A stretch of 49,511 bases of DNA. Origin: Armatimonadota bacterium (GTDB taxonomy: Bacteria; Armatimonadota; Chthonomonadetes; Chthonomonadales; JAMCWF01). The DNA lies in the NCBI GenBank assembly GCA_023481295.1, contig JAMCWF010000021.1, positions 1-49,511 on the forward strand, written 5' to 3'. Below the pieces are notes generated by a model that saw only the letters and a program-made list of their open reading frames with translations, ran no database searches and was not told the origin of the DNA. The translations under genes were made by a program, and so were the position numbers. Each line of letters starts with the position of its first letter. The first letter of the stretch is position 1. Below, one piece after another: positions 1,790 to 40,344 of this stretch.

Positions 1790-4081
1790 TCATTTGGATG
1801 CGATCGGTGCAACCGCCTTTCTCTTTTTCGTTGGGGCCGGCGCCACCCCACTGCCGTTGCGGCTGCCTTCAGGTGAGGCAATGGGAGTTGGTTGCCGTCT
1901 CAGGTCAGACGAGCGTCGAATCGCGGCCAGCAACCCCCCAAGCACGATCAAGACGGCGCCCAGCCATACCACACCGATGCCGGGCTTGTAGATCGCCTGC
2001 ATCCAAATCCTCACCGCGGCCGAGGGGGCCGGCATTCCAACCAATAAGAGCGCCACCTGCTGTGAATCGGCCATTAAGTCGGCCAGCTCAACCTTAATAC
2101 GGGGCTGGTCGGGAAGTGATGGCTCGTCAATCGGTTGCTTTTGGCCGTTCACTGACGGAATCAGAGTGTGAACTCCCTGCGGATCGGTGACCGTGATGAC
2201 TGCCCCGACCCGAAATTGGTTGGCGGTTTGGCCATGCTCGAACATTTTAAAGCCCTTAAACAGCCAAGTTGTACGGCCGATCTGAACCGGAACGCCGAGC
2301 TTCAAGAGGATGGTCGGTACGGAAGGATGGCTCTCTAATTGTGTGGGAGCCAGATAAAGATCGTAGAGTGCCGTTCGGTGAATGGCCGGTGAATTGACCC
2401 AGCCGTTCGCGGTGGAAGTGAGCGTCATCCGAGCGTTGTACGACTGCCGGTCACTGCGCAGCATCAGGTTGAGCTGCCGCTTAATTTGATGCAGTGTGGT
2501 CGGCTGATTGTGCAGACTTTGCAAGTTGAGCTGATAACCGAACGCGGTGGCTGGGTGCTCTGTCGCGACCGAGATGATCTGCTCGCGCTGATAGACGGTG
2601 GAGACAAACGCGCCGACTACCAGTAAGGCGGCACCGATGTGGGCGAGCTGAGCTCCGGTGCGGAGCGGCTGCCTATCCCGGTATCCGTGGTAAAGCCGGA
2701 TTGAGTTCCCGCTGATTGCAAATGCGGCCGCGCCGGTGCAGATCAGCCATACCCAAGAGTGTACGCCACAACCCCAGGCAATGGCGCAAACCAGCAGCGA
2801 GAAGTAGAGCGGCGGGATCAGTGTGGGCTTTATTTCAGAAGGGGGTACCGGTTTCCAGCCGATCAGCGGAGCGAGCGCCATTAAAACGCAGATGATGACG
2901 GCGGCGGGCGTGCTTACCCGATTATAGTAGCTCTGCGCCACCGCAAATGAATGGCCGAACTGCGCCATCATAATGGGGGCGACCGTTCCGCAAAGGATCG
3001 CAACCGCAAGCGCCAACAATACCACGACGGAGGCAACCATCAGAAAGCCCTTCGACAGCAGGGAGGTGTACGCCGGCTGAGTACGGATGCTTCGCGCGAC
3101 CCGCCGGTAGAGGAACAGCGCAATTACGGCAAACGCGCACGGGAATCCAATCATCAACTGATTAAATTGGGAGCCAGCTTGGCTGAACGAGTGCACCGAG
3201 GTATCGCCTAGTATTCCGCTGCGGGTCAAGTAGGTGGCCAGCAGGACCAGCAGGTAGGAGAGCACCGCCAGCGCATAGTTGGTCTTGTGGAAGGAGGAGG
3301 TCACCCGCTGGATGATCAGGCCATGCAGCAAAGCGGTCAGCACCAGCCAGGGGACCAGCGAGGAGTTTTCAACTGGATCCCATCCCCAGAAGCCGCCCCA
3401 GCCGAGCGTTTCGTAAGCCCAGTATCCGCCCAGAGCGATGCCGGCAAAGAGCGCCACCCAGCCGATAATGGCCCACGGCATCAACTTGGTAATCCAATCA
3501 TTGAAATCACGCTTTAGCAGTGAGCCGAGCGCCATCGCGAACGGCGCCGCCAGCAGTGCGTAACCCAGAAACAAAAACGGTGGATGAATGATCATCCAGA
3601 TATTTTGCAGCAACGGATTCAGGCCGCTTCCTTCGGTGGGAATCGGGCCGTGAAGGACGGCGAATGGGCTTTTGGAAATCAGCAGTACGATCAGGTAGAG
3701 CTGGGCGAGGAGAAAGAAGGGCATGCGATAAGGCTCGTCTTTGCCGGAGCTGAAGGCCAGCACAATGCCGACGACGGCGGTTAAAAGCGTCCATAAGAGC
3801 AGACTGCCCGATTGGCCGGCCCAGAGAGCGGAGATCAGCAGGGGGGTCGAGAGGTCGGAGGAGCTGTATTCGTAGACGTAGCTCACCTCGAAATGGTGAC
3901 CCAGAAACAGCATCAGCAGGCTGCCCATCGCAATGACGATGCCGGTTGCGGCCAACCCCAGGCTGAACCGGGCCAGCTTCAGGCTCTCTGCCTGCCCCCG
4001 CAAGACGGCGATGTAGGCGTAGCCGGCGACCAGTGTGGCGATCAGCGCGATATAGATTGCCGAATGGCCCATTGATATCAT
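1790..4081 (-). CDS. ccmF: cytochrome c-type biogenesis heme lyase CcmF/NrfE family
   Basis: 763-aa polytopic ORF with Trp-rich WWD motif WGGFWGWDPVENSSLVPW and a CcmF-like N-terminus and C-terminal region. SD GAGGT lies 8 nt upstream of the ATG. Confidence 0.85.
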   Translation of the reverse strand: MISMGHSAIYIALIATLVAGYAYIAVLRGQAESLKLARFSLGLAATGIVIAMGSLLMLFLGHHFEVSYVYEYSSSDLSTPLLISALWAGQSGSLLLWTLLTAVVGIVLAFSSGKDEPYRMPFFLLAQLYLIVLLISKSPFAVLHGPIPTEGSGLNPLLQNIWMIIHPPFLFLGYALLAAPFAMALGSLLKRDFNDWITKLMPWAIIGWVALFAGIALGGYWAYETLGWGGFWGWDPVENSSLVPWLVLTALLHGLIIQRVTSSFHKTNYALAVLSYLLVLLATYLTRSGILGDTSVHSFSQAGSQFNQLMIGFPCAFAVIALFLYRRVARSIRTQPAYTSLLSKGFLMVASVVVLLALAVAILCGTVAPIMMAQFGHSFAVAQSYYNRVSTPAAVIICVLMALAPLIGWKPVPPSEIKPTLIPPLYFSLLVCAIAWGCGVHSWVWLICTGAAAFAISGNSIRLYHGYRDRQPLRTGAQLAHIGAALLVVGAFVSTVYQREQIISVATEHPATAFGYQLNLQSLHNQPTTLHQIKRQLNLMLRSDRQSYNARMTLTSTANGWVNSPAIHRTALYDLYLAPTQLESHPSVPTILLKLGVPVQIGRTTWLFKGFKMFEHGQTANQFRVGAVITVTDPQGVHTLIPSVNGQKQPIDEPSLPDQPRIKVELADLMADSQQVALLLVGMPAPSAAVRIWMQAIYKPGIGVVWLGAVLIVLGGLLAAIRRSSDLRRQPTPIASPEGSRNGSGVAPAPTKKRKAVAPIASK

Positions 4082-4159
4082 CTTAACTTACCTCGCTTTC
4101 GCACTCCGCTCCGCAGAGCGATGCTTCGTATCACAGTGAATTTCAATCATATCAACCCA

Positions 4160-4202
4160 ATCATACGTTCCAATTGCAATCCAATGTATGACACGGGTCA
4201 TA
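4160..4202 (-). promoter_or_regulatory. candidate class-II Crp/Fnr-type promoter for ccmF: box TATGAC-N4-GTCATA plus -10 TATGAT
   Basis: The palindrome spans 4187-4202 (center 4194.5). The minus-strand hexamer TATGAT at 4165-4160 starts 29.5 nt from the center, which places the box at -41.5. The half-sites are identical to the box at 10792-10807. Confidence 0.5.
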
Positions 4203-4230
4203 TCTTTCATATCGCCTCATCTGTAAACCA

Positions 4231-6696
4231 TCAAGGCGAGGTTTTGCTGTGGCACATCGAGCAGAATTTCTGCCGATCATGGCACTTAAAACAAAAGCTG
4301 TTAGCCTTAAAGGAGGCCACCTTGGCGTGTGTCATCGACCAGTCGGCCGGGTGCGGCATCGGCGTCTGGTGGCACCGATCGCAACTGTTTTGGCCATGAC
4401 AGATGGCGCATACCTTTTCCTGTCCTTTCGCTGCGGTTGGATGGGTTTTCGGCCAATTCGCATCGTGCGATGCGGGCTTATGAGTTTGGTGGCAGGCCAT
4501 GCACTCGGAAGGTCGGTGGCAGCGCTTACAGAGTGACGGGCTTTGCAGCGCAATCGGCTCATGCCCCGACTGCATCCAACCGGCCGGATGCGGCATGGCG
4601 ATCCCATGGCAATTCACGCAAAAGTTCTGGACATGGCAGTTGGCGCAGACCGGCGATTGCATTGCAGCGGCCGAATGGGGACTTTGGGCCGTTTTCACCG
4701 GGCCGATCGGCGGCAACACCTTTCGGTTTAGCCAATCCGCCGGGTGCGGCATGTTGGTTCGATGGCAAGTCTGGCAAAAGGATGGTTTATGACAGGTGCT
4801 GCACCGTAAAGTTCCGCTCAATGCGAGCTTTCCGTGCCGCTTCATAAAATCGGGCGCCCGATGTGAGACAGGCCGCGCACCCTGATGACATTCGACACAA
4901 AAATCGGGGGTATGACACACGGTACACTTGTGAGTCGCCGTCAGTTTGCCGTGTATTTGCAAAAAATTCGCTTGCTGATGCGACGGCGGCCGTGCCCCAT
5001 GGTGACAGGTTCGGCAGAAGGTAGGTGTGTGGCAACGATAACATGTGGCCTTGTTTTTGATGGCGGCATTTCGATGCATCCTCAACCAATAGGGGCCATG
5101 CAGAAGCTTGCGATGGCACTGATCGCACTGTTGCCGAGAGTGGCAGACCAGGCAAAACTTGGGGTTGACGGCGGAAGCCCCGGCATGGAATCGCAACCAG
5201 TGATGGAGATGGGAATTGGGTTTGCGGTTGCGGTGACAGGCTTGGCAGAACCGGGGCTGATGGCATTCGGCGCAGGATTGGGGGTCTTTCATCACCTCAA
5301 ACCGATGATTGAGCATAAACCCTTCCTCCAGGTGTGATTGCGGCTCCGGCGGCCCGATCTGCGGCGTGGATGGCATGGTAGAGGTTGGGCGGATGCTTTG
5401 AATGAATGACACCATCGCCACGATCTCATGCTGATTCAACTGAGAGGGCGGCATGATCGAACGCGGGTTGAATCGGGTTGGGTTGAGCAGAACCTCCTCG
5501 ATCGTTTTTTTTGTGAGCTTGCCGCCGGTCGCCAAATCCGGCCCGGCGGTACCGCCACCGCCGTTTATCCCATGGCAGGCCTGGCAGTGCAAATCGAGAA
5601 AGAGCTTTTGACCTTCCTGCTGCAGTGGGGTTAACTTGGGTGCGCTTTCAATCGTTGGAAGCGATCTCAGCGAAAGTGCCGTCACCGCCACGAAGACGCT
5701 ACCGGCGAGGAAGATGGAAATGGGGCGTCGAGCCAGCTTTCGTTCCGGGTTGTGATCTAAATAGGGCACCAGGATGAAAGCCAGCAGGGTGATACCCGGA
5801 ATAACCATGCCACCGATGAACTCCCACTTGCCGGTGAAAAGGTGGGCCAGCTCAAAGAGGTAGAGGAAATACCAGTCGGTGTGAGCCGGATATGTGAGGT
5901 TGGGATTCGCGGGAGGCGTGAGGTGAAATCCCAAAATCAGCGTCGCCAGCATCAGTATCACAAAGAGCACCGCGCAGCAGATCATGATCTTCACCGTATG
6001 ATCCGGGTGAAACAGGAGCGGCTTTTCGACGTTCTGCTCATCATCCACCTGGCGCCACGGCGGCGTGATACCCTTCACCCTCACCTGAAAAACATGAAAG
6101 ACAAGCAAGATCACAAGTATGGTCGGCAAGAAAAAGACGTGAATCGCGTAAAACCGGGTCAAGGTCAGCGTGCCCACCGTAGGCTCGCCCAGGATGGCCG
6201 CCTTCAGCCAGTGACCCACAATCGGAAGCGAGCCGGCCAGGCTCATGCGGATGGTGGTGGCCCAATAGCCGTTTTGGTCCCAGGGCAGCAGCGAGCCGGT
6301 TATGGTGAAGGCCATCGTGATGGTTAGCAGCAGGATTCCAATCACCCAAACGATCTGGCGCGGCTTTTTGTAGGCTCCCCAGAGGAAAACCCGTAAAATG
6401 TGAACCCCGACCAAGAAGGCGATGGCATCGGTGGTGTAGTGATGAAGACTCAAGGCCACCCTTCCCCAATAGACGCTGCGGATAAATTGGATGCTGTCGT
6501 AGGCATGGTCAGGAGTCGGGGCATAGTAGAGTGCGAGAAAGATGCCGGTGACGAACTGGATCACGAGCAAAAATAGGATCACCGCCCCGATCGTCTGCGG
6601 CCAGCTTATACCGGACGGCAGCGGATACACCAGAAATCGTTCGATATCAGAGACCAGTCCGGTCTGATCATCAATCCAGCGAAGGATCTTCTTCAC
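4231..6696 (-). CDS. fusion protein: cytochrome b6-like + subunit IV-like + monoheme cytochrome c + 18-heme tandem-repeat cytochrome c
   Basis: 821 aa. The N-terminus has four conserved b-heme His in helices (SLHHY, GVHILR, YAIHVF, LVFHVF), LPWDQNGYW and a Qo-like TDWYF. CQACH with a downstream IMPP Met follows at residues 371-375, then 18 further CXXCH at residues 475-816. The GTG start lies 4 nt after the Rieske stop. Confidence 0.9.
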   Translation of the reverse strand: MKKILRWIDDQTGLVSDIERFLVYPLPSGISWPQTIGAVILFLLVIQFVTGIFLALYYAPTPDHAYDSIQFIRSVYWGRVALSLHHYTTDAIAFLVGVHILRVFLWGAYKKPRQIVWVIGILLLTITMAFTITGSLLPWDQNGYWATTIRMSLAGSLPIVGHWLKAAILGEPTVGTLTLTRFYAIHVFFLPTILVILLVFHVFQVRVKGITPPWRQVDDEQNVEKPLLFHPDHTVKIMICCAVLFVILMLATLILGFHLTPPANPNLTYPAHTDWYFLYLFELAHLFTGKWEFIGGMVIPGITLLAFILVPYLDHNPERKLARRPISIFLAGSVFVAVTALSLRSLPTIESAPKLTPLQQEGQKLFLDLHCQACHGINGGGGTAGPDLATGGKLTKKTIEEVLLNPTRFNPRSIMPPSQLNQHEIVAMVSFIQSIRPTSTMPSTPQIGPPEPQSHLEEGFMLNHRFEVMKDPQSCAECHQPRFCQACHRNRKPNSHLHHWLRFHAGASAVNPKFCLVCHSRQQCDQCHRKLLHGPYWLRMHRNAAIKNKATCYRCHTPTFCRTCHHGARPPSHQQANFLQIHGKLTATHKCTVCHTPDFCVECHQGARPVSHRAPDFMKRHGKLALSGTLRCSTCHKPSFCQTCHRTNMPHPADWLNRKVLPPIGPVKTAQSPHSAAAMQSPVCANCHVQNFCVNCHGIAMPHPAGWMQSGHEPIALQSPSLCKRCHRPSECMACHQTHKPASHDANWPKTHPTAAKGQEKVCAICHGQNSCDRCHQTPMPHPADWSMTHAKVASFKANSFCFKCHDRQKFCSMCHSKTSP
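4249..5274 (-). repeat. in-frame tandem array of nine diheme modules (about 37-52 aa each) inside the cytochrome b fusion gene
   Basis: The pattern CxxCH-x3/4-CxxCH-x3/5-(P)H-x3/5-(W/F)-x3-H recurs nine times, starting at residues 475, 515, 552, 591, 632, 684, 723, 763 and 802. Confidence 0.85.
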
Positions 6697-6700
6697 CCCT

Positions 6701-7195
6701 CTAGGCTCCTTTTATCTTGATCAGAATTCGGCCGCCGACTACCTTATAAGGAAATCGGTCCAATGGGCGCGGCGGCGGTCCCGCTACCACCTGACCCTTG
6801 ATGTTGTACATCCCGTTGTGGCAGGGACAGTAAAACACCTTTTTGTCGGGCTCCCAACGCACCGCACAACCGGCGTGAGTACAGACATTGGAAAACACGG
6901 TGAACGATTGAAGATTTTCGGCCACCACATAGACGGTTCCGCGAACGAGTTGATCCAGGTAGCCGTCCTGATGGTTGTAACGGTAGGTAAACGCGGTGGG
7001 AACGCCGAGCACCACATCGGTCAGCAGGCCGATATCCAGCCAGGTCTCCTTACGCCGTTTGAACGCGGGGAATAGGCTGAGCGCGACCATTGGGGCCGAA
7101 AGCAGGCCGACCAGTAAAAAACCAAATAGACCCACCAAATAGGAGAGGAATCGCCGCCTATTCGTTTTCCGATGGTTTGAATTCGGGTGTTTCAT
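6701..7195 (-). CDS. Rieske [2Fe-2S] protein with twin-arginine signal
   Basis: CTHAGCAV and CPCHNGMY cluster-binding boxes, and an NRRRFLSYL TAT motif. I place the start at the ATG at 7195 (GGAGG 7 nt upstream) rather than the ORF-track start at 7276, which lies inside a repeat element. Confidence 0.85.
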   Translation of the reverse strand: MKHPNSNHRKTNRRRFLSYLVGLFGFLLVGLLSAPMVALSLFPAFKRRKETWLDIGLLTDVVLGVPTAFTYRYNHQDGYLDQLVRGTVYVVAENLQSFTVFSNVCTHAGCAVRWEPDKKVFYCPCHNGMYNIKGQVVAGPPPRPLDRFPYKVVGGRILIKIKGA

Positions 7196-7237
7196 CCTAC
7201 ACCTCCTTAAACTCGAACCCACGCCGCTCGTATAGGT

Positions 7238-7384
7238 GGTTGCTGAAAAATACTGCAACACCCACCGGGTCGTCATTCCGTGGCCGCAAAGCGGAACCCG
7301 GAATCCAAGACATTGACATCGGACTGGATTCTCGCTTTCGCGTGAAAATCGTAGCGGCGGACTCCCGCCGGTTTTTCAATAACC
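7238..7384 (+). repeat. MITE-like modular palindromic repeat, copy B
   Basis: Termini are GGTTGCTGAAAAATAC (7238-7253) and the inverted GTTTTTCAATAACC (7371-7384). Internal hairpin modules are GTCGTCATTCCGTGGCCGCAAAGCGGAACCCGGAATCCAAG and a degenerate CTGGATTCTCGCTTTCGCGTGAAAATCG. Confidence 0.7.
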
Positions 7385-7404: not shown

Positions 7405-9495
7405 CTAGTCCCTCATTGGCTCGGCTTCATGAATATCCGTTCGCGTTAGCGGTGGCCGCTGCTTCATATGCTCCGCATACTCCAGTGGATGTTCTTCCTG
7501 CATCTGATGGAGTGATATTTTTCCGGTAATCCAGACTTGGCTCATCGGGAAGACGGAAGGATTGAAATGCACCCAATAGAGATGCCACGTAATGATCGCG
7601 ATAAAGGCTAGTAGCGCTTCAAAGCCGTGCATGACCAGCGCCATTTGCCATGCCCATAACGGGAGCCAGTGCAGGGCGGTGCTCATGAACCAGAGAATGG
7701 CGCCGGTCATCACCATCACGATCGTCCCCCAAGTTAGGGAGAGATACTCGAATTTCTCCGCGTAGCCGAACCGGCCGAATCGAGGGCGATCGGGGACCAA
7801 GCCAAAGTAGTATCGAAACTGATGGATGAAATCGTAAAGATCCTTACGATTTGGCATCAACATCATAACATCTCTCCGGGCTGACTTTGAAACGGCAAGG
7901 TAGATGAGATGGTAGATCGCGGCCGTAACCAGTAAGACCGCTCCGGCCCGGTGAAGCCATGCACGAAGCTCGAAACCGCCCGGAAATGAGAGCAGAAAGC
8001 GTGCCCAGTCCGTTTGTGAGTACTGCAGCAAGAATCCGCTCGCCATCAGGGTGCCCACGCTGATCAACAGGATGACGTGCTGAATTCTAACCTGCAATGG
8101 CATTCGCTCAACGTAAGTATTGGCCGGTGAGCTTTCATCGTCGTCCGCTCCCGATCGTGCCGCAGCGTGGTCCGTATCGATGGAATGTCCCGCCGGCGCG
8201 GAGGCGCCCATCCTTTTGCGCTTGGATTCGCGACGACGAGCCCAGAGATCCAGCCCAATCAACCCGAAGAAAAGGAGCGTCATAGACCAGATCACGACTC
8301 GGTAAAAGAGGGTCATCAGGTAAACGCCCAGGTTGCTCGCCGGAGTAACCTCCATATGTACCTCGCCCCGGGCGAAGTTAGCGCCGGCGTGTTTATGACA
8401 GCGGCCGCAGGTAGTCGGTATGTTCTTCGGATTGATGGATGAGCGGGGATCCGAGGCGGGCAGAATTTCGTGAGCGCGGTGACAGGTTGCGCAATTGGCA
8501 ACCGTCACGATCCCGTAGGTCAAAGCCGTCCCATGGTAGGAGCTTCGGAAGGTCGAAAGCCGATCGGTCGGCAGCCCGAAGCGCAGGTCAATCGCTTTGT
8601 TGGCGTGGCAGCGACCGCAGGTGTTGGGGATATTGGTCGGATATACGGAGGAAGTGCGGTCGGTGGGCGCCCGGATGGTATGCTCCCCATGACAGTCGGT
8701 GCACACCGGAGCGGCCTTCACTCCCTTTAAGAACGCCTGACCATGCACCCCGGCCAAGTAGTGCGTGAGCTTATCCGGGTGGCAGCGGCCGCAGGTTCGC
8801 GGTATATTATTTCGGGCAACCGATGAGCTGGACACGCCGGCCGGTTGAATATCGTGGGCACGGTGACAATCGGTGCATACGGCGGCGCGGTTCATTCCCT
8901 GTCCCAACAGCAACTGGCCATGCACGCTTTTTTCATACTCTAGTAAAACATGTCCCTTCGGAATGCGAAATCGGTCAACCAGTCGCGGGTTGTTGTGGCA
9001 GTGAGCGCAGGTAAAGGGAATGTTTTGCCGGTTAACCTTCGAACGTGGGTCCGAAGCCGGCAAAATTTCATGCCGGCCATGGCAGGTAGCGCAGGTAGGA
9101 GCCAAGGTGGTGTGCTCCGCAACCGCAATCTGATGGTGGATGCTCAATTTAAAGCGATGAGCGATGTCGGCAAACCGAGCGGCGAGTCCGCTGTTTTTAA
9201 GGTGACAATTAACACAATTCACCGGTTGGGCGGTGGCAGGGTGAGGCAGGCGATTGGCGCTGAAATCACGGTGGCAATCGGTGCACTTTAAATTGCGATG
9301 AACCGATTGGCGGTAGCGTGCCGGATCTATGTAACCGCTTACGATCGTTCGCGAATGACAGCTCAAGCAGACGCGGTTGGTAGAGGGGCTGGTTTCACCT
9401 CTTGCCGGCAATTCCGACAGCATCACCATTAAAAGAATTGGTGCATGCACCCACCACGCTAACCGCGTACGGTGCGTGGTTATCATCGTTTTCAC
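7405..9495 (-). CDS. CbcL-like membrane cytochrome: periplasmic 11-CXXCH multiheme domain fused to a FdnI/HydC-type b cytochrome
   Basis: 696 aa with a signal peptide and 11 CXXCH, including four repeats of CxxCHxxHxI...NIPxTCxxCH. A TM helix and a charged linker follow, then a 4-helix domain with conserved His (RIQHVI, WLHRAG, IYHLIY, VMHGFE, TWHLYWVH). Confidence 0.8.
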   Translation of the reverse strand: MKTMITTHRTRLAWWVHAPILLMVMLSELPARGETSPSTNRVCLSCHSRTIVSGYIDPARYRQSVHRNLKCTDCHRDFSANRLPHPATAQPVNCVNCHLKNSGLAARFADIAHRFKLSIHHQIAVAEHTTLAPTCATCHGRHEILPASDPRSKVNRQNIPFTCAHCHNNPRLVDRFRIPKGHVLLEYEKSVHGQLLLGQGMNRAAVCTDCHRAHDIQPAGVSSSSVARNNIPRTCGRCHPDKLTHYLAGVHGQAFLKGVKAAPVCTDCHGEHTIRAPTDRTSSVYPTNIPNTCGRCHANKAIDLRFGLPTDRLSTFRSSYHGTALTYGIVTVANCATCHRAHEILPASDPRSSINPKNIPTTCGRCHKHAGANFARGEVHMEVTPASNLGVYLMTLFYRVVIWSMTLLFFGLIGLDLWARRRESKRKRMGASAPAGHSIDTDHAAARSGADDDESSPANTYVERMPLQVRIQHVILLISVGTLMASGFLLQYSQTDWARFLLSFPGGFELRAWLHRAGAVLLVTAAIYHLIYLAVSKSARRDVMMLMPNRKDLYDFIHQFRYYFGLVPDRPRFGRFGYAEKFEYLSLTWGTIVMVMTGAILWFMSTALHWLPLWAWQMALVMHGFEALLAFIAIITWHLYWVHFNPSVFPMSQVWITGKISLHQMQEEHPLEYAEHMKQRPPLTRTDIHEAEPMRD

Positions 9496-9677: not shown

Positions 9678-10673
9678 TTAAGTTGTCGGCTTAGTAAACA
9701 GATGGCGGCCTTGCGGCATATGGCAATCGGAGCACTTTGCATCGGCGGCGCCCTTGTGTTGTTGAATATGGGCGGCCGGGTCGGTAATTTGCGCTTTGTG
9801 GCAGGTCAAGCACAACTGGTTGGTCGGCTGCCGGAGCTGATCGGGTTGATTGGTATTTCCGTGCGGATCGTGGCAGGTAATACAGGTAATGCCCGCCGCG
9901 TAGTGCTTACTCTGGATGTAATCGTTGTACTGCTGGTTGCGCCCGGGGCCGGTTACCTGAGCCAGGGTGAAGGCGGCGGTCAAATCATCTCCCGGCCGGA
10001 ATGAGGCTGGAAACGGATGACCGTCTTTGTCCTTCCCCACCGAATGGCACTGGCCGCAGATCATATCCTGCCGCTGCGGAGGCAGATCCTTCGGCATCAG
10101 GATGGTTTGCTTAGCGATGTCCAGCTTTTGCGCGTCGGGGGCGGAAACCATCTTAGCCAGGTGATTGCTGCCGGGACCGTGACACATCTCGCAGCCGACC
10201 CCCATGTCCACCCAAGTGTCGTTTGACACATCAAATCCGGTCGTATGGCAACGCACGCACTGAGTCTTTGCATCCACTGGCTCCACCTTTATCCAAGACT
10301 TCGTTGCCACGTCCCACTCGGCCGGCAAAAGCTGGAAATTTGAATCCAGATAGGCTTGCTGCCGATGTCCCACGCCGAGAACGTAAGCCACTTTGTCTTT
10401 GGTAAATGGGGCGGAGCTGAAATCGGCCACGATTGCGCTGGCATTGGATGCCGTCTGCATGGCGGAGTAGTGAGCGGTTTGAACGTAGGAGGCGACGATG
10501 GTTTTTGAAATATCCATGGTGCGGTGGCACATCATACAAATCTTAGTGCCCTTGTAGGTGGCGGCCGTTTGCGTGCTGGAGGCGGCGATGCTAGCGCCCA
10601 GGGCAATCAGCGCCCCCATAATGATGGGGTACTTCACCCCGTTACCGAACTGTTTGATTGTGTTCAATTTCAC
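9678..10673 (-). CDS. secreted heptaheme c-type cytochrome (c554-like CxxCHGPGSxH motif)
   Basis: Seven CXXCH (CMMCH, CVRCH, CEMCH, CGQCH, CITCH, CLTCH, CSDCH). I prefer the GTG at 10673, which follows GGAGGA and yields a signal peptide (VKLNTIKQFGNGVKYPIIMGALIALGASIAA). The ORF-track start at 10745 is the alternative. Confidence 0.75.
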   Translation of the reverse strand: MKLNTIKQFGNGVKYPIIMGALIALGASIAASSTQTAATYKGTKICMMCHRTMDISKTIVASYVQTAHYSAMQTASNASAIVADFSSAPFTKDKVAYVLGVGHRQQAYLDSNFQLLPAEWDVATKSWIKVEPVDAKTQCVRCHTTGFDVSNDTWVDMGVGCEMCHGPGSNHLAKMVSAPDAQKLDIAKQTILMPKDLPPQRQDMICGQCHSVGKDKDGHPFPASFRPGDDLTAAFTLAQVTGPGRNQQYNDYIQSKHYAAGITCITCHDPHGNTNQPDQLRQPTNQLCLTCHKAQITDPAAHIQQHKGAADAKCSDCHMPQGRHLFTKPTT

Positions 10674-10781
10674 AATTCCTCCACTAAATTGGATTGCATC
10701 AGTCGGTGGTGGTCTTAAAACACGGTAACGATCGGTTTGATGCACTTCAATCTTCGTTGATCTAGCATATCGCAGGAGCGC

Positions 10782-10817
10782 CCTTCGATTGTATGACGGT
10801 TGTCATACAATCGAAGG
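10782..10817. promoter_or_regulatory. perfect 16+16 bp palindrome with core TATGAC-N4-GTCATA; candidate Crp/Fnr-type operator
   Basis: The sequence is CCTTCGATTGTATGAC-GGTT-GTCATACAATCGAAGG. It overlaps the regulator stop codon (10803-10805). The minus-strand hexamer TATGCT at 10769-10764 starts 30.5 nt from the center. No U-tract follows on either strand. Confidence 0.5.
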
Positions 10818-11597
10818 AAGCGGGCAAAGCGGCTGATCTGAATCACAGCTTTCGTCAACGAATGATTTCAGCGCGTTAAGATGCATGATGACGATCTTAT
10901 TGCACCGGTGGCAGTATGAGTCAATGCCGCAAAGGCGGCAGCCTTTTGGGACCAGTTTCCCGTGGATGGTGCAGATGTACCCTGCCTTCGTCAGGCGGCT
11001 CAACACCCGAATGGTCGTTTCCACCGTGGTGCCGGCCATGTCGGCGATCTCGTGGCGGGTGAGTGGAGTGGTAATCAAGGCGCGGTCGTTGCTTTGAACG
11101 CCGGTTATTTTCGCCAAGTAGATCAACAGGTGTGCGATGCGCTTGTCCACCGCTTCGGTGACTAAAAATCGGAGCATTTCCTGGGTATAGCAGAGACGGC
11201 GTGACACCGCTGCAATGAGACGCTTGGCAAAGAGAGGAGATTGATCGATGGTCTTAACCACCTGGCTATGAGGAATGAAAAGTGCGGTCATCGGCGTGAT
11301 TGCGACCACCGAGGAGGTGTAAATCCGGTCCACCAAAAAGAGGCAAACTTCGCCGAAAATATCGCCTGGTTTCAGGATCGCGACCGTTATATCGCGTCCG
11401 AGCGCTGAGTGCTTGACCACCTTGGCGCGACCCCGAAGGATAACGCCGATTGCGAAGGCTTCGCTCCCTTCGCTGAAAACCTCTACACCCGGCTTGTATT
11501 TGCGCTCGGTAACTTGTGATTCAAGCTGCGCTATCTCCTCAATCGGCATATCGGCCAGGATCGGAACGCTCTGCAAAAAAGCCAACCGGTCCGACAT
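10803..11597 (-). CDS. Crp/Fnr-family transcriptional regulator with C-terminal CxxC-x5-CxxC insertion
   Basis: 264 aa with a cNMP-binding-like beta-roll and an HTH (TRHEIADMAGTTVETTIRVLSRL). The extra motif C220-RL-C223-GIDSY-C229-HR-C232 is encoded at 10902-10940. Confidence 0.85.
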   Translation of the reverse strand: MSDRLAFLQSVPILADMPIEEIAQLESQVTERKYKPGVEVFSEGSEAFAIGVILRGRAKVVKHSALGRDITVAILKPGDIFGEVCLFLVDRIYTSSVVAITPMTALFIPHSQVVKTIDQSPLFAKRLIAAVSRRLCYTQEMLRFLVTEAVDKRIAHLLIYLAKITGVQSNDRALITTPLTRHEIADMAGTTVETTIRVLSRLTKAGYICTIHGKLVPKGCRLCGIDSYCHRCNKIVIMHLNALKSFVDESCDSDQPLCPLPSIV

Positions 11598-24461: not shown

Positions 24462-24491
24462 GGGCGATCGGTTGGGTTGTTGGAGGGCTGT

Positions 24492-25874
24492 ATGAGCGAA
24501 CAGCTTCGCATTGATGATGATGATTTTTCGATTGCTCTGCGTCGTACATGGGAGCGTGCGCTACAGCTTTTATCGGCCAAGGTCAGCATAGTTACCTACG
24601 AAAGTTATCTGCGTCCCATCCACCCAATCTCTTGGAACGGCACCGAAGTGGTTTTGGGTGCTCCCAGTCCATTTGCGCGTGAATGGATCGAAAAGCGGTA
24701 TAGCAACGGCATCCGTGCCGTTTTGGAATCGCTATTTGAGCAGACGATCAAGTTGCGTTTTGTGATCACCGAGGACCCCGACCCAGCGCCAAGCGTTGAG
24801 CGGCGGGTCCCTCGGCGGGCGGCGCGTGCTACCCCGGATGCTCCCTCGCTGCCGCTGAACGAGAAATTTACATTCGACCATTTCGTGGTGGGGGATTCCA
24901 ATCGTCTGGCTCAAGCCGGATCCATCGCCGTTTCAGTGGAACCAGGTAAAGCCTACAACCCGCTCTTTCTTTATGGGCCGCCTGGTGTCGGTAAGACACA
25001 CCTGCTCCACGCAATCGCCCACTCCTGTTTCGAGCACAAGCCCGACATCCGGGTTGCCTACGTATCGGGGGAGCATTTCACCCAACATTATCTGCTAGCC
25101 CTTCGTGAAAACCGGACGAATGAGCTTCGCCGGCGAATGCGCGGGGTTGATGTTTGGCTGGTAGACGATGTGCAGTTCATCGCTGGAAAAACATCCACCA
25201 AGGAGGAGTTTTTTCACACTTTTAATACGCTGCACCAGTCCGGTAAGCAGATCGTGATCTGCAGCGATCGCAGTCCCCGTGAATTGCGGGAGATGGACGA
25301 AAGGCTCCGCTCACGCTTTGAATGCGGGTTGATTGCCGACATCCAGATGCCGGAATTCGACACCCGACTTCGCATTTTAAAGCATCATTGCAAGGAAAAT
25401 CGTTACGACATCCCCAATGAGGTGCTCAATGAGCTGGCTTCTGCCATTCAATCAAATGTCCGTGCTCTCGAGGGCGCGCTCGTTAAACTGGTGACCTACG
25501 CCTCGGTGATGTCGAAACCGATCGATATCGAGCTGACGCAGCGAATCCTCTCCGAGTACCTAATCACTCGTCCGGCCAGCTCCGTCACCATCACTTGCGA
25601 TTTGGTAATCCAAAAGGTTTCCGAAAGCTTCGGCGTACCGCCCGATCATTTGCGGAGCGCCCGCCGAGACACCGATATCCTATTGGCCCGACAGGTCGCG
25701 ATCTATCTGTGCCGTGAATTCACCTCGTGCTCATTGAAAAGCATCGGGGTGGCGTTCGGTGGCCGTGACCACACCACGATCCTTCATTCCATCGAGCGAA
25801 TTGAGCAAAAGAGTACGTTGGATACTCAGCTCAGGCACCGAATCGATACATTACGCGACAAAATCAGGTGCTGA
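24492..25874 (+). CDS. dnaA: chromosomal replication initiator protein DnaA
   Basis: AAA+ Walker A GPPGVGKTHLL, box VII and a C-terminal DNA-binding domain (HTTILHSIERI). I chose the ATG at 24492, which follows GGAGGG, over the TTG at 24477. Confidence 0.9.
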   Translation: MSEQLRIDDDDFSIALRRTWERALQLLSAKVSIVTYESYLRPIHPISWNGTEVVLGAPSPFAREWIEKRYSNGIRAVLESLFEQTIKLRFVITEDPDPAPSVERRVPRRAARATPDAPSLPLNEKFTFDHFVVGDSNRLAQAGSIAVSVEPGKAYNPLFLYGPPGVGKTHLLHAIAHSCFEHKPDIRVAYVSGEHFTQHYLLALRENRTNELRRRMRGVDVWLVDDVQFIAGKTSTKEEFFHTFNTLHQSGKQIVICSDRSPRELREMDERLRSRFECGLIADIQMPEFDTRLRILKHHCKENRYDIPNEVLNELASAIQSNVRALEGALVKLVTYASVMSKPIDIELTQRILSEYLITRPASSVTITCDLVIQKVSESFGVPPDHLRSARRDTDILLARQVAIYLCREFTSCSLKSIGVAFGGRDHTTILHSIERIEQKSTLDTQLRHRIDTLRDKIRC

Positions 25875-25950: not shown

Positions 25951-27960
25951 TCACTGGTTCCAGCCGAGCCGGCCGTTAATTGAGATCGAATAGGTGGCAT
26001 GGCGAGTGTACATCGCTATGACCGCCCACAGGGTCTCCACCACGAATTCACCCAAGATTACGCCCAGCGCCGCATTCCGCAATCGCTCATAGCCGGGCAA
26101 TCCGTAATAGCGCGTTACAAAAACCTTGATAAGAAGTACCACTACCAGTCCGAACCAGTAGTAATCGAGTCCGAAGTTCATCGCCAGCGCATATCCGGCC
26201 GGGTGGAACGGAAATCCAGGATAACGGAAGCGGATCATATCCAATACCATCACAACCAATAAGCCGGACAGTACCGCCGAGATCGCAACCGGATTGGGAG
26301 GTCGGCGGTTGTCAACCAAATCTGAGATGGTGCCGACCGTGCCGGTTCCAAATCCAGCCCCATATCCCCAGCTTCCGTAGCCGAAATGGTAGTTCAAATA
26401 AATACGGGTAAGATGGCCGACCACCACGCCCACCACCGTGGCCAGCAAGACGGCGGCGAAGATCAGCCACTGGCTGACGCCGCTGGATTCGCCCATCTTC
26501 ATCGACTCGAGTTGAGAGGGCATCGGATCGTCGCGGTGAATCCGGTTCATGAAGTAAAAGGTCGTCACCACCCGTGTGATGGTCGCTTCCGGCACCGTCT
26601 GAGTTCCGGCGAAATCCACGAACATCTGATTGGGACCCATGAAGGCCATTTCGTGGGATGGGGCTCCAAGCTGTGCGCGCAGCCTCGTCACCGCAATGGC
26701 GAACACCAGGTACAGAGCGATATAGACAACCACCAGCCAGAAAGCGAGGCCGATCGAGACGCCGATCCAACCCAACAGGGCGACGCTGGTGATTAAGCCG
26801 GAAAAGGCGGCGCGGTGTGAGATCTCCCCCTTACGGTGGACACCTCGTTTTATCTCATCCCAAACCTCGCGCAGATAGCTCCGTGCCACCCAGATCGCGC
26901 TGATAAACAGCCCGATGAACGCCCCCCAGGACTGCTCGCTAAGGTAGGGCGGTCCCGGAACCAGACCACCACCTCCGAAAACCCCCTGGTTGATGCCGAA
27001 TGCGGCCACCACCACCTGCTCCCCTTTTCTCACGAAGAAGAAAAAGATGCAGGAGAAGAGCAGGTCAGTCGGCATAAAGACGCCGATCGCTGCAATATAG
27101 GGGAAGATACCGATCGGCGTCCATCCCATTGAGTTCCAGGGCGGTGAGGGGAACCAGAGCGAAAGATCGCCCATAAAACGAACGTTGACCCATGGCACCG
27201 AAGGATAGAGAAAGTGGAAGCCGTTCAGCAGATCAATGGCCGCCATAATGATGAAGCCGCCCCAAACGTACCGGTTCTTCCAGAACGGAGATCGGCCGCC
27301 ACCGGCCATAAACGCCATCGGTAACTGGATGATTGGAAATGCCAGCTTTTCGCGCCGAGTCCATTGGTCTCTCATTAAGCTGTTGATGCAGAGCATCGAG
27401 TAGCAGACCAGCGAGACGATCGCGCTCCAGCCCAGCACCGGACGCCACCACATCCCCAAATGATGCAGGGTATAGGGAAGCGAGTACCCGCCCATCTCGA
27501 TCGCCCGCAGGTGCTTATCACTCTTGATATAGAGAAAGCTGGAGATGTAGGGCAAAACGTGGTTTTGAATAGTGGCGTCATTGCTGGCATTGATGGCGTA
27601 GGTCACGATATAGTTATTGATCATATCCATCCATTCCGATGACATCACGCAAACGACGGTTTGCATCACATAGAACACCACCAGCTCGCCTTCCGTAAAG
27701 GCCAGGCGGGGCGCAAATCGCTGCAGCAGTTTATTGATGAGGACGATCGCGAAGGTGATCATTACCGGTGGAACCATCAGCGAGAAGATTCGGTCCACCA
27801 CCTGTGCGGAAGCCCAATAAGTGCAGACCGGTGTGAGGATCAGAGCAAGCAGGATAACTCGAACATAGCGGAGTGGAGATGTGCGCCTGGCAATGACTTT
27901 TGCGGTCGGTTTCTCGGGTGCCTCAAGTACCGGCTTACCGGCCGGCTGGGGTGAAATCAC
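25951..27960 (-). CDS. large polytopic membrane protein of unknown function (about 14 predicted TM helices)
   Basis: 669 aa with GTG start and AAAGGAG 9 nt upstream. I recognise no catalytic or transporter signature motif. Confidence 0.6.
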   Translation of the reverse strand: MISPQPAGKPVLEAPEKPTAKVIARRTSPLRYVRVILLALILTPVCTYWASAQVVDRIFSLMVPPVMITFAIVLINKLLQRFAPRLAFTEGELVVFYVMQTVVCVMSSEWMDMINNYIVTYAINASNDATIQNHVLPYISSFLYIKSDKHLRAIEMGGYSLPYTLHHLGMWWRPVLGWSAIVSLVCYSMLCINSLMRDQWTRREKLAFPIIQLPMAFMAGGGRSPFWKNRYVWGGFIIMAAIDLLNGFHFLYPSVPWVNVRFMGDLSLWFPSPPWNSMGWTPIGIFPYIAAIGVFMPTDLLFSCIFFFFVRKGEQVVVAAFGINQGVFGGGGLVPGPPYLSEQSWGAFIGLFISAIWVARSYLREVWDEIKRGVHRKGEISHRAAFSGLITSVALLGWIGVSIGLAFWLVVVYIALYLVFAIAVTRLRAQLGAPSHEMAFMGPNQMFVDFAGTQTVPEATITRVVTTFYFMNRIHRDDPMPSQLESMKMGESSGVSQWLIFAAVLLATVVGVVVGHLTRIYLNYHFGYGSWGYGAGFGTGTVGTISDLVDNRRPPNPVAISAVLSGLLVVMVLDMIRFRYPGFPFHPAGYALAMNFGLDYYWFGLVVVLLIKVFVTRYYGLPGYERLRNAALGVILGEFVVETLWAVIAMYTRHATYSISINGRLGWNQ

Positions 27961-34902: not shown

Positions 34903-35499
34903 GTGATCGGTGTGGCCAGTGCCGAAGCATCTCTTATCCTTCGCTGCAAGGAAAATGATGAGGCGGCATTCAATGAGATCGTGGAGCGGCATAAAGTCAA
35001 ACTCTATACCTACATCCTGCGAATGGTCGGTAACTCGCAGGATGCGGAGGATCTCGCACAGGAGGCTTTCGTTCGCGCCTATCTTTCGATTAAGTCGTTT
35101 GAGGGGCGTGCGAGCCTTACAACCTGGCTGTTTCGAATTGCGACCAACCTGTGCATTGACCGAGCCAGGCGCTCCAGTACGCGCCAGGTGATCCAAACCA
35201 CCTCATTGGATGATGTGGATGAAAACGGCACTCCGTATACCGGCGATTTGCCGGATGGGCGATATGAACCCCAAGATCGTGTGTTGCAGGATGAGTTGAA
35301 AACTGAGTTGGAGGCTGCCATCAGCCGGCTTCCGGAGAAATTACGGATGGTAATCCTGCTTCACGATCTGGAGGGCCTGCAGTACGACGAGATTGCCGAA
35401 GTGCTGCATTGTCCGTTGGGAACGGTCAAATCTCGAATTTTTAGTGCGCGGCAAGCGCTGCGCGAACAGCTTTCAAATTATCTATATGGCTCGGTTTAG
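34903..35499 (+). CDS. ECF-type RNA polymerase sigma factor (sigma-70 family group 4)
   Basis: Region 2 (DAEDLAQEAFVRAY) and region 4 (LQYDEIAEVLHCPLGTVKSRIFSAR). The GTG start lies 8 nt after GGAGG. Confidence 0.85.
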   Translation: MIGVASAEASLILRCKENDEAAFNEIVERHKVKLYTYILRMVGNSQDAEDLAQEAFVRAYLSIKSFEGRASLTTWLFRIATNLCIDRARRSSTRQVIQTTSLDDVDENGTPYTGDLPDGRYEPQDRVLQDELKTELEAAISRLPEKLRMVILLHDLEGLQYDEIAEVLHCPLGTVKSRIFSARQALREQLSNYLYGSV

Positions 35500-35523
35500 G
35501 CCGAGCGGGATGGTGATGAGAAA

Positions 35524-36054
35524 ATGCGGTGCAAAGAGTACGAGCCGCTGCTCTCCGAATTAATTGATGAGGCATTGCCGCCACGGCAAGTATGGGAAGT
35601 GGAGCGCCATCTTGCAGTGTGCAATCGCTGCGCGCTGGTCTATAACGACCTGAAGCGCACGGTCGCGACGCTCCACTCGTTGGGGTCGAGCACCCCTTCC
35701 CCCGAATTCACTGAGGAACTCGCACACCAATTGCAGGCGCTGGGAAATCGTAAAGCGCCGCTGCGGGAGCTTGTCGGGTCCTATGTCCGTCGTGTGGTCT
35801 TGACCCGCACGGTAGCGGCCGCGGTGTTTGTTAGCTTGTTGGGCATGGCGGTTTTTTCAACGCCGCGATGGCTGAATCAAGCGGCGCCGCTCGCCCCCCA
35901 ACGGCCACCGGTTCCCAAATATGCCGCAATGGACCGGAGCGAATTTATGGCACTGGCGGTCAATGATCCGTTACAGGACGTTTCAGCGATCAGTCTGGAA
36001 TCACATACTTCCACCACAAACCATAGTAACCGCGTACCCGGCGTGCAGCATTAG
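35524..36054 (+). CDS. anti-sigma factor (zf-HC2 type), single-pass membrane
   Basis: N-terminal C-x26-H-x3-C-x2-C (CKEY...HLAVCNRC) and a central TM helix. The gene immediately follows the ECF sigma gene. Confidence 0.75.
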   Translation: MRCKEYEPLLSELIDEALPPRQVWEVERHLAVCNRCALVYNDLKRTVATLHSLGSSTPSPEFTEELAHQLQALGNRKAPLRELVGSYVRRVVLTRTVAAAVFVSLLGMAVFSTPRWLNQAAPLAPQRPPVPKYAAMDRSEFMALAVNDPLQDVSAISLESHTSTTNHSNRVPGVQH

Positions 36055-36063
36055 GAGCGGTTG

Positions 36064-37161
36064 ATGCGCAACCGCCGATTCGGGCAAGGCAGCCATCGCC
36101 TGGGAATTGTAACGATTGCACTTATTCTTCTGGCGCTTGCCTGCGCGTTGGCCTATTCCAATGATAGGGGACCTCACTCTTGGCGCCGCCATAATGTCTG
36201 GTATGAAAATCGGGGCGTTCACCTAGACCCAGCCGAGCAAAAAGTCCGCAACATAATGATTAAATGGCTCAAGGATGGTCACCGCACCCCCTATTCCGGC
36301 GTTCAAATCACCCAGATTATGCATCACGGTTTTTTGGAATCGAAGCAAATCGCCATGCATGGCGGCCCGGGCCAGATGCGGATACAATTTATCTCACCGC
36401 CGAAGCTGGCCGGTGAGTTGTTCCTGATAACCGATGGGCGCTTTTTTCACTACATCCCATCGCAAAACGTGATCCATCAGGGAGAGATTCCCCACGATGA
36501 GTTTGAACACCGAATGAGGGAGATCATGGAATCGTTTCTCGACGGACGCATTTCAATACAATTGGTGGGGAAAGATCGAATCGCAGAACGAAATTGTTCA
36601 ATACTGGAGATTAAGCCGAAGGGGAAAGGTTATTACAAGAGGGTGTGGATTGATAGCTCGACCGGTATCCGTTTAAAGATTGAAAAATTCAGCTCATCGA
36701 GCCGACCAATTTTCAACACTTTCTTCACCAAGATTCAGTTATGGCCGCATTTCCCACCGAACACTTTCAATCCCTACGCGCTTCCGAAGGTTCGCCACAT
36801 CGCAATCTTACCCCATGCCTTGCCGTACACAACCATAGGGGCGGCACAAGACGTGGTGCGCTACCCAATTCGAGAGCCTCATCTACCGTCTGGCTATCGC
36901 AATGTCGGCATCTGGATACTGGCGCGAAACGATCCGTTCTCCACCACCGCCCTCCGATATTCGAACGGTGTCAGCTCATTCGTGCTGTTTGAGCGGCCGC
37001 TGCCGCCCCCTCAATGGGATGACTACCAGGGACCGGAGCCGGCATCAAAAATCCGTTTACGAAACAACGTCGCCTACTGGCGCAGCCAACGCTATCAATT
37101 TACGCTCATCGGTGACTTGTCGGAAAGCGATCTTCTTGTGGTCGTCCGATCGTTGTTATAG
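36064..37161 (+). CDS. RseB/MucB-like (LolA-fold) periplasmic protein with DUF4367-like C-terminus
   Basis: Third gene of the sigma module. ATG at 36064 lies 6 nt after AGGAG. The C-terminal VAYWRSQRYQFTLIGDLSESDLLVVVRSL pattern supports the call, which remains tentative. Confidence 0.5.
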   Translation: MRNRRFGQGSHRLGIVTIALILLALACALAYSNDRGPHSWRRHNVWYENRGVHLDPAEQKVRNIMIKWLKDGHRTPYSGVQITQIMHHGFLESKQIAMHGGPGQMRIQFISPPKLAGELFLITDGRFFHYIPSQNVIHQGEIPHDEFEHRMREIMESFLDGRISIQLVGKDRIAERNCSILEIKPKGKGYYKRVWIDSSTGIRLKIEKFSSSSRPIFNTFFTKIQLWPHFPPNTFNPYALPKVRHIAILPHALPYTTIGAAQDVVRYPIREPHLPSGYRNVGIWILARNDPFSTTALRYSNGVSSFVLFERPLPPPQWDDYQGPEPASKIRLRNNVAYWRSQRYQFTLIGDLSESDLLVVVRSLL

Positions 37162-40100: not shown

Positions 40101-40344
40101 AATAGACGCCCTTAACCCGGTTTACTGAACCGACCGCATCTTCAAGCGGCTTGGTGACCAGCGCTTCGACCTCCAGTGGCCCGGCGCCGGGAAACACGGT
40201 GGTGACGGTTAAGGTGGGAATGCTGACCCTGGGGTTTAACTCGGCCGGAAGTCGGCGGGCGGCCTCAATCCCGAGCAACATGATCGCGGCCAAAACCATC
40301 CAGATAAAGATGGGGCGCGTGATTGCAGTGCGGGTCAGCCACAT
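37156..40344 (-). CDS. RND efflux transporter permease, AcrB/HAE1-like
   Basis: 1062 aa with 12 TM helices and two large periplasmic loops. The N-terminus TRTAITRPIFIWMVLAAIMLLG...LPAELNP is typical of the family. Confidence 0.85.
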   Translation of the reverse strand: MWLTRTAITRPIFIWMVLAAIMLLGIEAARRLPAELNPRVSIPTLTVTTVFPGAGPLEVEALVTKPLEDAVGSVNRVKGVYSRSQTSVSIISLDFSLGTNLDAAAAEVRQKVDAVKMTLPPEVLPPVVAKLDINALPILYIGLSSNEPISELRHLVDTVLKPQIARVPGVATVDVIGGEANEVHVEVNPQRLQQYGVTIEDVVNSLKAASHNVPAGTITQGLRNFTVQTAGAFTRLQDIRRTQIISMASMAAAGNMSSGANPVAPLTVGDVANVWEGPAKSTLINRVQGRESVSLVISKHSDANTVSVADGVKRKLQSLRSRLPADTQIVISKDDSITIRNALEDVDATLILGAILATAVVFLFLHSVRATVIVSIALPTSIVATFLVMYFAGFTLNQMTLLALSLSVGILIDDSIVVLENIIRHLRNGETPVEAAFNGRTEIGLASIALTLVDVVVFVPIAFMGGIVGGFFRQFGLTVVSATLFSLLVSFTITPMLASRWYRGGETFVSSGGLFHRFDLLYSKLDSFYHGVIVWALHNRSLVLAGGIALLVAAALFSLPSLGVEFLPGIDQGQIAITIEMPSDSSIAATDNVAREVEQVVRNTAGVRYYVTTVGEIMGGFGATPQEGQQYAQVNVRLLPRKGVLDELLSPIFPKANLRTQSDEQIATILRKKLRFIPWATIQVAAVRNVAAAGPPVQIELRGQSLTDLTSAATQLRERMLHLPGILDPSILLRSGAPEVEVQVNRERAAALNIPPDLVGATLRDAIEGNTDVLYREMGTDIPVHIQLAGVDRNDPNQIGSIPVGASNGGPVTIADVANIRYSSTPPAIDHVNGQREVTVTANLAPGYTLSDAEQAISERMADIPMQGITMHWGGEAEVLSENASYFINALILAVLLVYMAMASLFNSLLNPFVIMFTLPMAMGGALVALVISGESFSLVAMIGVIMLVGLMGRNAILLVDYTATLRQRGMNRTNALAVAGATRLRPILMTTIATILGMLPVALRIGRASELRAPMAIVVIGGLLVSTILTLIMIPVVYSVADDAAAWVRRKLWGGRTDTAL

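Follow-up and report, generated by a model that had tools for sequence, protein, structure and literature searches.

Within a stretch of 49,511 nucleotides from the metagenome-assembled genome of an uncultured Armatimonadota bacterium (the entire contig JAMCWF010000021.1, called the window here), an open reading frame on the minus strand (4231-6696) encodes a protein of 821 residues that joins a cytochrome b core to a C-terminal tail with 18 predicted heme sites. The NCBI record of this protein (MCL5283377.1) bears the name 'cytochrome b N-terminal domain-containing protein'. From the N-terminus, it is composed of a cytochrome b6-type domain, subunit IV, a monoheme cytochrome c domain, a linker and the multiheme tail. 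The gene is part of a block of six genes on the minus strand, in the order Crp/Fnr regulator, 7-heme cytochrome, CbcL-like protein, Rieske protein, the cytochrome b-c-18-heme fusion and a heme lyase of the CcmF/NrfE family. Together they encode 37 c-type heme sites. The block is kept in relatives, while its downstream flank differs. The coordinates of all features are given in Table 1.

Table 1. Positions of the parts of the fusion protein and of the surrounding genes, numbered along the window.
Feature	Position	Strand	Basis and remarks
Cytochrome b6-type domain with fused subunit IV	5647..6696	-	7 predicted transmembrane helices, heme ligands, TDWY motif
Monoheme class I cytochrome c domain, c1/f position	5392..5619	-	PF00034 and PF13442, residues 360-435, CQACH at residue 371
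Pro/Ser/Thr-rich linker, residues 436-454	5335..5391	-	Sequence reading; joins monoheme c domain to tail
C-terminal multiheme tail, residues 452-821, nine units	4234..5343	-	Motif register, dN/dS, PF22113 and PF14522 passed
Unit 1, residues 455-488	5233..5334	-	H455/H464, then CAECH-x4-CQACH
Unit 2, residues 496-528	5113..5211	-	Motif register
Unit 3, residues 533-565	5002..5100	-	Motif register
Unit 4, residues 573-604	4885..4980	-	Motif register
Unit 5, residues 612-645	4762..4863	-	Motif register
Unit 6, residues 651-697	4606..4746	-	14-15-residue insertion between its two His
Unit 7, residues 703-736	4489..4590	-	Motif register
Unit 8, residues 744-776	4369..4467	-	Motif register
Unit 9, residues 782-816	4249..4353	-	Terminal cap '...ASF..S.CF.CH-x5-C..CH'
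Rieske [2Fe-2S] protein	6701..7276	-	PF00355; CTHAGC and CPCHNG boxes; twin-arginine NRRRFL
CbcL-like protein, 696 residues: 11-heme cytochrome c domain and FdnI/HydC-type cytochrome b	7405..9495	-	Pfam, NCBIfam
7-heme cytochrome with N-terminal hydrophobic membrane anchor	9678..10745	-	Related to OmhA, OcwA and cytochrome c554
Crp/Fnr-family regulator, head of the conserved block	10803..11597	-	
CcmF/NrfE-family heme lyase paralogue	1790..4081	-	763 residues, WWD motif; directly downstream; position kept in relatives

The membrane part of the protein matches the Pfam families PF00033 and PF13631 (residues 25-255) and, in its subunit-IV-like C-terminal part, PF00032 (residues 263-342). A hydropathy scan gave seven transmembrane helices, which is the pattern of cytochrome b6 plus subunit IV. 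The histidine ligands of the b hemes are present on helices B and D (H85/86-H99 and H186-H201, the latter pair with b6-type spacing), and a PEWY-like motif of the Qo site is found as TDWY at residue 273. The class I cytochrome c domain provides the high-potential c-type acceptor on the P side that is equivalent to c1 or f. With the ligand histidines, the PEWY-like motif, the adjacent Rieske gene and the c1/f-like domain, the characteristics of a Rieske/cytochrome b complex of the bc1/b6f type are present. The cysteine for heme ci (CxGG of b6f and Firmicute-type complexes) was not found, and the N-terminal 60 residues of the cytochrome b contain no cysteine. Because they follow seven predicted transmembrane helices, the c domain and the tail are expected on the periplasmic side, and we infer a periplasmic location for the multiheme tail behind these helices and the class I cytochrome c.

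The protein contains 19 CXXCH motifs, one at residue 371 and 18 at residues 475-816 (nucleotides 4249-5274), the latter in nine pairs. An earlier sequence-only reading of this DNA had claimed 18 motifs in nine pairs over exactly this span, which both the translation and the module profile described below uphold. It had given the spacing within the pairs as 3-4 residues; the actual spacing is four residues in eight of the nine pairs and five in the last. That reading also placed two histidines behind each CXXCH pair. Two histidines per module hold, but the register had to be changed, as 844 linkers between pairs from 258 family proteins demonstrate that the histidines precede the pair. The conserved unit is H-x7/8-H-x10-CXXCH-x4-CXXCH, in which the histidine pair goes with the CXXCH pair after it. 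Exactly two histidines occur in 89% of these linkers; they stand 7 residues apart in 62%, and the second lies 10 residues before the next cysteine in 69%, while variation in linker length sits mostly between a CXXCH pair and the first following histidine.

In the window protein, the leading histidines H455 and H464 (nucleotides 5305-5334) are followed by 10 residues to C475. They lie upstream of the previously noted start at 5274, placing the start of the array near nucleotides 5334-5343. Since this pair precedes the first CXXCH pair, the array has nine complete units. The former count of exactly two extra histidines per module applied to five of the nine modules as they had been delimited; modules 1, 3 and 7 have four, four and three, and module 9 has none. 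Eighteen CXXCH motifs and 18 conserved spare histidines were found overall, so that the bis-His-compatible stoichiometry proposed before is retained, with about 20 residues per heme and units of about 34-40 residues. All 36 cysteines of the tail and all motif histidines are invariant across homologues and in the orthologue L001, which is 91% identical. No CXXCK or other atypical heme motif is present in the protein. These features make it almost certain that the tail is a multiheme domain of the c type, with a stoichiometry that fits bis-His ligation.

The insertion in unit 6 is rich in proline, and the second histidine of this unit keeps its spacing to the next CXXCH. It is also present in L001 and is longer in L002, a full-length homologue from an Abditibacteriales metagenome-assembled genome with 54% identity and eight pairs. 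Halfway along the array, the insertion may act as a hinge or as a loop for docking.

Using a hidden Markov model (HMM) of the module with 38 positions, built from homologues only with the query rows removed, we found nine domains in the tail with 256.7 bits in total. Units 1-8 scored 25-48 bits each and the truncated ninth 11 bits. As controls, the 7-heme cytochrome of the operon scored 8 bits, the 11-heme protein -13 bits and 20 shuffled tails were negative. A search for tandem repeats at the DNA level in 4000-5600 gave only a trivial 9-bp repeat, and hence the array is old and not the product of a recent duplication. The ratio of nonsynonymous to synonymous substitution rates (dN/dS) in comparison with L001 is 0.064 for the tail and 0.12 for the cytochrome b part. 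None of the 36 substitutions in the tail affects a motif cysteine or histidine; by H566Q a surplus, non-conserved histidine is lost, and L001 gains a histidine by Q759H. The tail is under strong purifying selection. Open reading frames that overlap the tail in other frames (e.g. 4329-4847 on the plus and 4787-5266 on the minus strand) were rejected as spurious; it is the long frame that is conserved, with the dN/dS given above.

In a word-indexed search, the tail matched 370 proteins, the most similar at 39% identity, a value that understates the close relatives, as the window's own cluster of 821-residue proteins (P0402/P0403) stands outside these 370 matches. P0403 is present on 16 contigs. 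When 1.84 billion cluster representatives were scanned exhaustively with HMMER, 1338 protein clusters matched at E <= 1e-3, of which 308 reached E <= 1e-10 and 65 reached E <= 1e-30. The spacing and modularity had been called unusual at first, which was overstated, as they are the hallmark of a family with no fewer than 1338 protein clusters. Among the 258 best matches, 105 carry an N-terminus of the NapC/NirT type, 10 an anchor of the bc type (cytochrome b and/or monoheme c, including P0128 with 810 and P0130 with 755 residues) and 4 a cytochrome b of the FdnI/HydC type; the others have no recognised anchor or are fragments. The number of CXXCH pairs per family protein ranges from 0 to 12, such that nine pairs in the window protein are high and not maximal. 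Many members end with the cap '...ASF..S.CF.CH....C..CH'.

Source annotations of the members read 'hypothetical protein', 'cytochrome c3 family protein' or 'NapC/NirT family cytochrome c', and cluster look-ups for ten of them gave no informative names. When the tail was scanned alone, it passed the cut-offs of two generic multiheme models of Pfam, PF22113 (34.3 bits, cut-off 30) and PF14522 (31.6 bits, cut-off 24.8); both scored just under their cut-offs when the full-length protein was scanned. PF09699 (Paired_CXXCH_1), the 'doubled CXXCH motif', is alike in having about 41 residues with two CXXCH and in being repeated in cytochromes of the Geobacter and MtrA type. It gave no match for the tail at E <= 10 nor for the whole protein at E <= 0.01, unlike the 7-heme and 11-heme cytochromes of the operon, which do match it. 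A scan of the tail against NCBIfam gave no match. Judged by its sequence, H-x7/8-H-x10-CXXCH-x4-CXXCH is a specific di-heme repeat family that was previously undescribed.

Searches of the PDB sequences with the tail and with one module (phmmer) as well as with the module profile (hmmsearch) gave no significant match. The best non-significant alignment was to the heme 3/4 region of the Shewanella flavocytochrome c3, which has a 9-residue spacing (E 0.0014-0.03), and no ungapped match to CXXCH-x4-CXXCH was found among these sequences. Pairs of CXXC that are four residues apart resemble metal-binding knuckles, and no solved protein with CXXCH-x4-CXXCH and two hemes was found in the PDB sequences; one might thus suppose that the repeats bind zinc or iron-sulfur instead of heme, or that the motifs are only partly matured. 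We regard this as highly improbable, as the histidine directly after each CXXC is invariant, two distal histidines are conserved per pair, the Pfam multiheme models are passed, the location is periplasmic behind a cytochrome c domain and a CcmF-like lyase is encoded in the cluster.

It is also very unlikely that the tail is a catalytic multiheme enzyme, for instance a reductase of nitrite, hydroxylamine or a sulfur oxyanion. Rieske/cytochrome b complexes of anammox bacteria do associate with catalytic octaheme proteins (PMC12954380), and the tail gave weak, non-significant profile alignments to hydroxylamine oxidoreductase (E 2.8). In a catalytic tail, however, it would be hard to account for a conserved spare histidine for each CXXCH and for the absence of CXXCK or other atypical motifs. 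Moreover, no larger catalytic fold was recognised, and the PDB gave no match by sequence or by fold.

For the whole tail, AlphaFold2 gave a model with a predicted local distance difference test (pLDDT) of 70 and a predicted template modelling score (pTM) of 0.40. Units 6-9, modelled as four modules from a clean alignment of 27 sequences, reached a pLDDT of 83 and a pTM of 0.61. Foldseek against the PDB found nothing at E < 7 with the whole-tail model and nothing at E <= 10 with units 6-9, where it has to be considered that heme-less, loop-rich models may blunt Foldseek. In the AlphaFold2 model of residues 676-821, a single helix covers both CXXCH of the VCAICH..CDRCH pair (model residues 85-101), which in the corrected register is located at the second CXXCH of unit 8; a helix-break-helix arrangement is predicted for other pairs. 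If the helix were ideal, an offset of 9 residues would make the two hemes of the pair project from opposite faces, with an axial separation of about 13 A. The variation from 0 to 12 pairs and the use of about 20 residues per heme speak for an elongated, open repeat and against a globular shape.

The neighbouring genes offer possible partners for the tail. The closest PDB relatives of the 7-heme cytochrome are the surface reductases OmhA (6qvm, E 3e-16) and OcwA (6i5b) of Gram-positive bacteria, and it could act as a terminal reductase or as a partner of the tail. Because the CbcL-like protein joins an 11-heme domain to an FdnI/HydC-type cytochrome b, the operon holds two different quinol-oxidising modules side by side. 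No further multiheme open reading frame was found in the window. The CcmF-like lyase has a C-terminal extension of about 230 residues beyond the CcmF_C domain and is named 'CcsA' by NCBI. Neither CcmE nor CcmH is encoded beside it.

The contexts of family members in other organisms may help to place the tail. P0007, a 26-heme NapC/NirT fusion with ten repeat pairs (L050, 8044-11217; L051, 2278-5451), adjoins an MtrB_PioB porin and an MtrA-like cytochrome, and its cluster contains a CcsA-type gene. Of the gene contexts, this one hints most strongly that repeat arrays connect the inner membrane with conduits in the outer membrane. P0003 is flanked on one side by an MtrA-like gene and a 544-residue protein without a Pfam match, and on the other side by c554-like cytochromes, a CbcL-like protein, ResB and CcsA. 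After P0016 stand two MtrA-like proteins and a 551-residue protein without a Pfam match, P0013 comes after a CbcL-like gene, and P0027 lies beside menaquinone genes of the futalosine pathway. Maturation genes, CcsA and ResB, were found inside two other clusters of the repeat family (L050, L057). A porin-cytochrome system of the MtrAB type, i.e. an MtrB/PioB barrel encoded together with MtrA, is present beside P0007; none was found in the window.

Rieske/cytochrome b complexes with multiheme c subunits have been described in Kuenenia (Kuste4569-4574 and Kustd1480-1485), together with a fusion of cytochrome b and diheme c (Kuste3096-3097) (PMC12954380). They are similar to the complex described here in that cytochrome f/c1 of a b6f-like core is replaced by a multiheme c, or cytochrome b is fused to a c-type domain (PMC12954380). 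The Kuenenia cytochrome b (L015) is 33% identical to the cytochrome b part of the window protein and is among its nearer relatives; the nearest relatives that have no tail are from Gemmatimonadota, Kuenenia and Dissulfurispiraceae, the last a cytochrome b-diheme-c fusion. In contrast, the anammox complexes carry 6-8 hemes on a separate subunit, or two if fused, whereas here 1 + 18 hemes are on the cytochrome b polypeptide. The complex of the window has a different repeat, no NAD(P) oxidoreductase subunit and no heme-ci cysteine. An anammox bacterium as the source of the contig was rejected: DnaA and the NCBI records assign it to Armatimonadota, and no hydrazine-metabolism genes were found in the window.

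CbcL and ImcH of Geobacter and the NapC/NirT/CymA family likewise consist of a quinol-oxidising membrane module joined to a periplasmic multiheme domain that feeds periplasmic or outer-membrane cytochromes. NapC/NirT fusions are the commonest recognised anchor of the repeat family (105 of 258), and a CbcL-like gene is also a neighbour in the window. The characterised proteins of this type differ in having 4-9 hemes and in lacking H-x7-H-x10-CXXCH-x4-CXXCH, while the anchor in the window is a proton-motive Rieske/cytochrome b complex. The dodecaheme cytochrome GSU1996 of Geobacter, with c7-type domains, and the decaheme MtrA of Shewanella are also tandem, modular bis-His chains, which are thought to conduct over about 8-12 nm, and Pfam places the tail in the same superfamily (PF14522, PF22113). 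The c7 domains have three hemes per about 75 residues as compared with two per about 39 in the tail, and the density is about 26-33 residues per heme as compared with about 20. Unlike these proteins, to which it has no significant sequence or Foldseek match, the tail is tethered to an inner-membrane enzyme.

The magnetochrome of MamP, MamE, MamT and MamX is a unit of about 20 residues, usually in tandem, in which an upstream (P)H provides the sixth ligand (PMC3971196). Its motif [P/T/H]H-x5-9-CXXCH binds one heme, whereas the tail has two histidines before two CXXCH, with spacings of x10 and x4, and MamP showed no Pfam or PDB sequence or fold match to the tail. The likeness is best seen as an analogy of design and not as homology. 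Predicted 'nanowire' cytochromes of great length already form a recognised class (PMC11492766), and from hot-spring Armatimonadota 'membrane-embedded multiheme cytochromes of unknown function' have been reported (PMC11788075). A literature search for a cytochrome b/multiheme fusion of this type or for the motif returned only the anammox complexes, general surveys and magnetochrome.

Taken together, we consider it probable that the tail is a periplasmic domain of 18 bis-His hemes, which acts as a tethered electron conduit of the Rieske/cytochrome b complex. That it conducts electrons is well supported by inference: a conduit anchored in the inner membrane is to be expected because the array is fused elsewhere to NapC/NirT and FdnI-like anchors, sometimes beside MtrB/PioB and MtrA-like genes. 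Menaquinol would be oxidised at the Qo site, and the Rieske cluster would hand one electron to the monoheme c, from which it would move along the closely packed heme chain to a partner beyond the range of a normal c1 domain. This partner would most plausibly be the 7-heme OcwA/OmhA-like or the 11-heme CbcL-like protein of the operon, or else an outer-membrane acceptor. The fused array would thereby replace diffusible periplasmic cytochromes with a tethered conduit, and the CcmF-like lyase encoded next to the fusion may serve specifically to load the densely spaced sites. In solved wires such as MtrA, GSU1996 and OmcS, each heme accounts for about 0.8-1 nm. By analogy, 18 hemes could reach roughly 14-18 nm, which is of the same order as the earlier estimate.

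Several observations weigh against a conduit of this kind. Bis-His hemes are usually of low potential, which is awkward downstream of a Rieske center unless the potentials are tuned. The AlphaFold2 models are only moderately confident (pLDDT of 70 and 83), and a linear arrangement remains a hypothesis. No porin, MtrA-like protein or other outer-membrane partner was found in the 49,511 nucleotides of the window or in the block of the relatives. Furthermore, no heme lyase is encoded beside the bc-type fusion P0128, and the idea of a dedicated lyase is therefore not general.

An alternative to the wire is a compact heme bundle, in which the units would fold back and serve the bc complex as an electron reservoir, or capacitor, that stores up to 18 electrons when acceptors are scarce. 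The pTM of 0.40 of the full-tail model leaves the packing open, an outer-membrane partner is not encoded nearby in the window or in the block of the relatives, and electron storage is among the roles discussed for heme-rich cytochromes (PMC11492766). Yet homologues differ in their number of pairs (0 to 12) while keeping the terminal cap, as open, elongated repeat proteins typically do. At about 20 residues per heme, little protein is left for a globular core, and some relatives adjoin MtrAB-like conduits. We thus think that a reservoir is unlikely.

The direction of flow along a conduit could also be opposite, from an external or periplasmic donor to the Rieske/cytochrome b complex and uphill to the quinone pool. 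Reverse-running bc1 complexes have been proposed for iron oxidisers. The sequence itself gives no direction of flow, and conduits of the MtrAB/PioAB type, which here stand next to relatives, are generally known to work both ways in nature. However, no Cyc2, MtoAB or iron-oxidation marker was found in the window, and anaerobic respiration is a better match for the Crp/Fnr regulator and for the OcwA/OmhA-like 7-heme protein. A reversed wire seems to us about as improbable as a reservoir.

A more far-reaching version of the tethered conduit is conceivable, although we would advance it only tentatively and as rather doubtful. The repeat would be a new minimal di-heme fold whose copies join within a single polypeptide into a rigid nanowire of >10 nm, plugged by evolution onto three unrelated quinol-oxidising anchors (NapC/NirT, FdnI-type and Rieske/cytochrome b). 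The complex described here would then be the first proton-pumping bc-type complex that is hard-wired across the periplasm without the need for soluble carriers, and it would be served by its own CcmF-type lyase.

The window contains several diderm markers, namely a TolC-like outer membrane efflux protein (OEP), AcrB, LolA-like proteins and Skp, and by these genes the host organism is a diderm. At 34903-37161 (plus strand) and 37156-43426 (minus strand), an RND efflux system with AcrB, an HlyD-type adaptor and the TolC-like OEP adjoins genes for an ECF sigma factor, its zf-HC2-type neighbour (an anti-sigma factor) and an RseB/LolA-like protein, which is consistent with a diderm envelope. A hopanoid biosynthesis cluster (43501-49479, minus strand) comprises a squalene-hopene cyclase, a radical-SAM/DUF3463 protein (HpnH-like) and an NAD-dependent epimerase (HpnA-like) as well as IspH/LytB and a PNP_UDP_1 protein (HpnG-like). 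The contig probably holds the chromosomal origin region, since dnaA is located at 24477-25874 on the plus strand. A membrane protein of 669 residues with DUF6785 and DUF6784 (25951-27960, minus strand) has no assigned function.

Overall, our data describe an unusual fusion, as read from the sequence, of a recurring di-heme repeat array with an energy-conserving bc-type complex. The protein-to-heme ratio of the repeat is among the lowest known; the repeat occurs in more than 1000 protein clusters and has no structural representative. Hence, it is a tractable target for structural work, for studies on how heme lyases load sites that are four residues apart and for the design of compact conductive modules. 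How electrons cross a periplasm of 20-30 nm is a standing question in extracellular electron transfer; in the model organisms, diffusible cytochromes do this. An 18-heme tail fused to a quinol oxidase suggests a different, hard-wired solution, and here the tail is placed on an energy-conserving complex of the Q-cycle and not on a simple quinol dehydrogenase. The finding also flags a capacity for anaerobic respiration in Armatimonadota.

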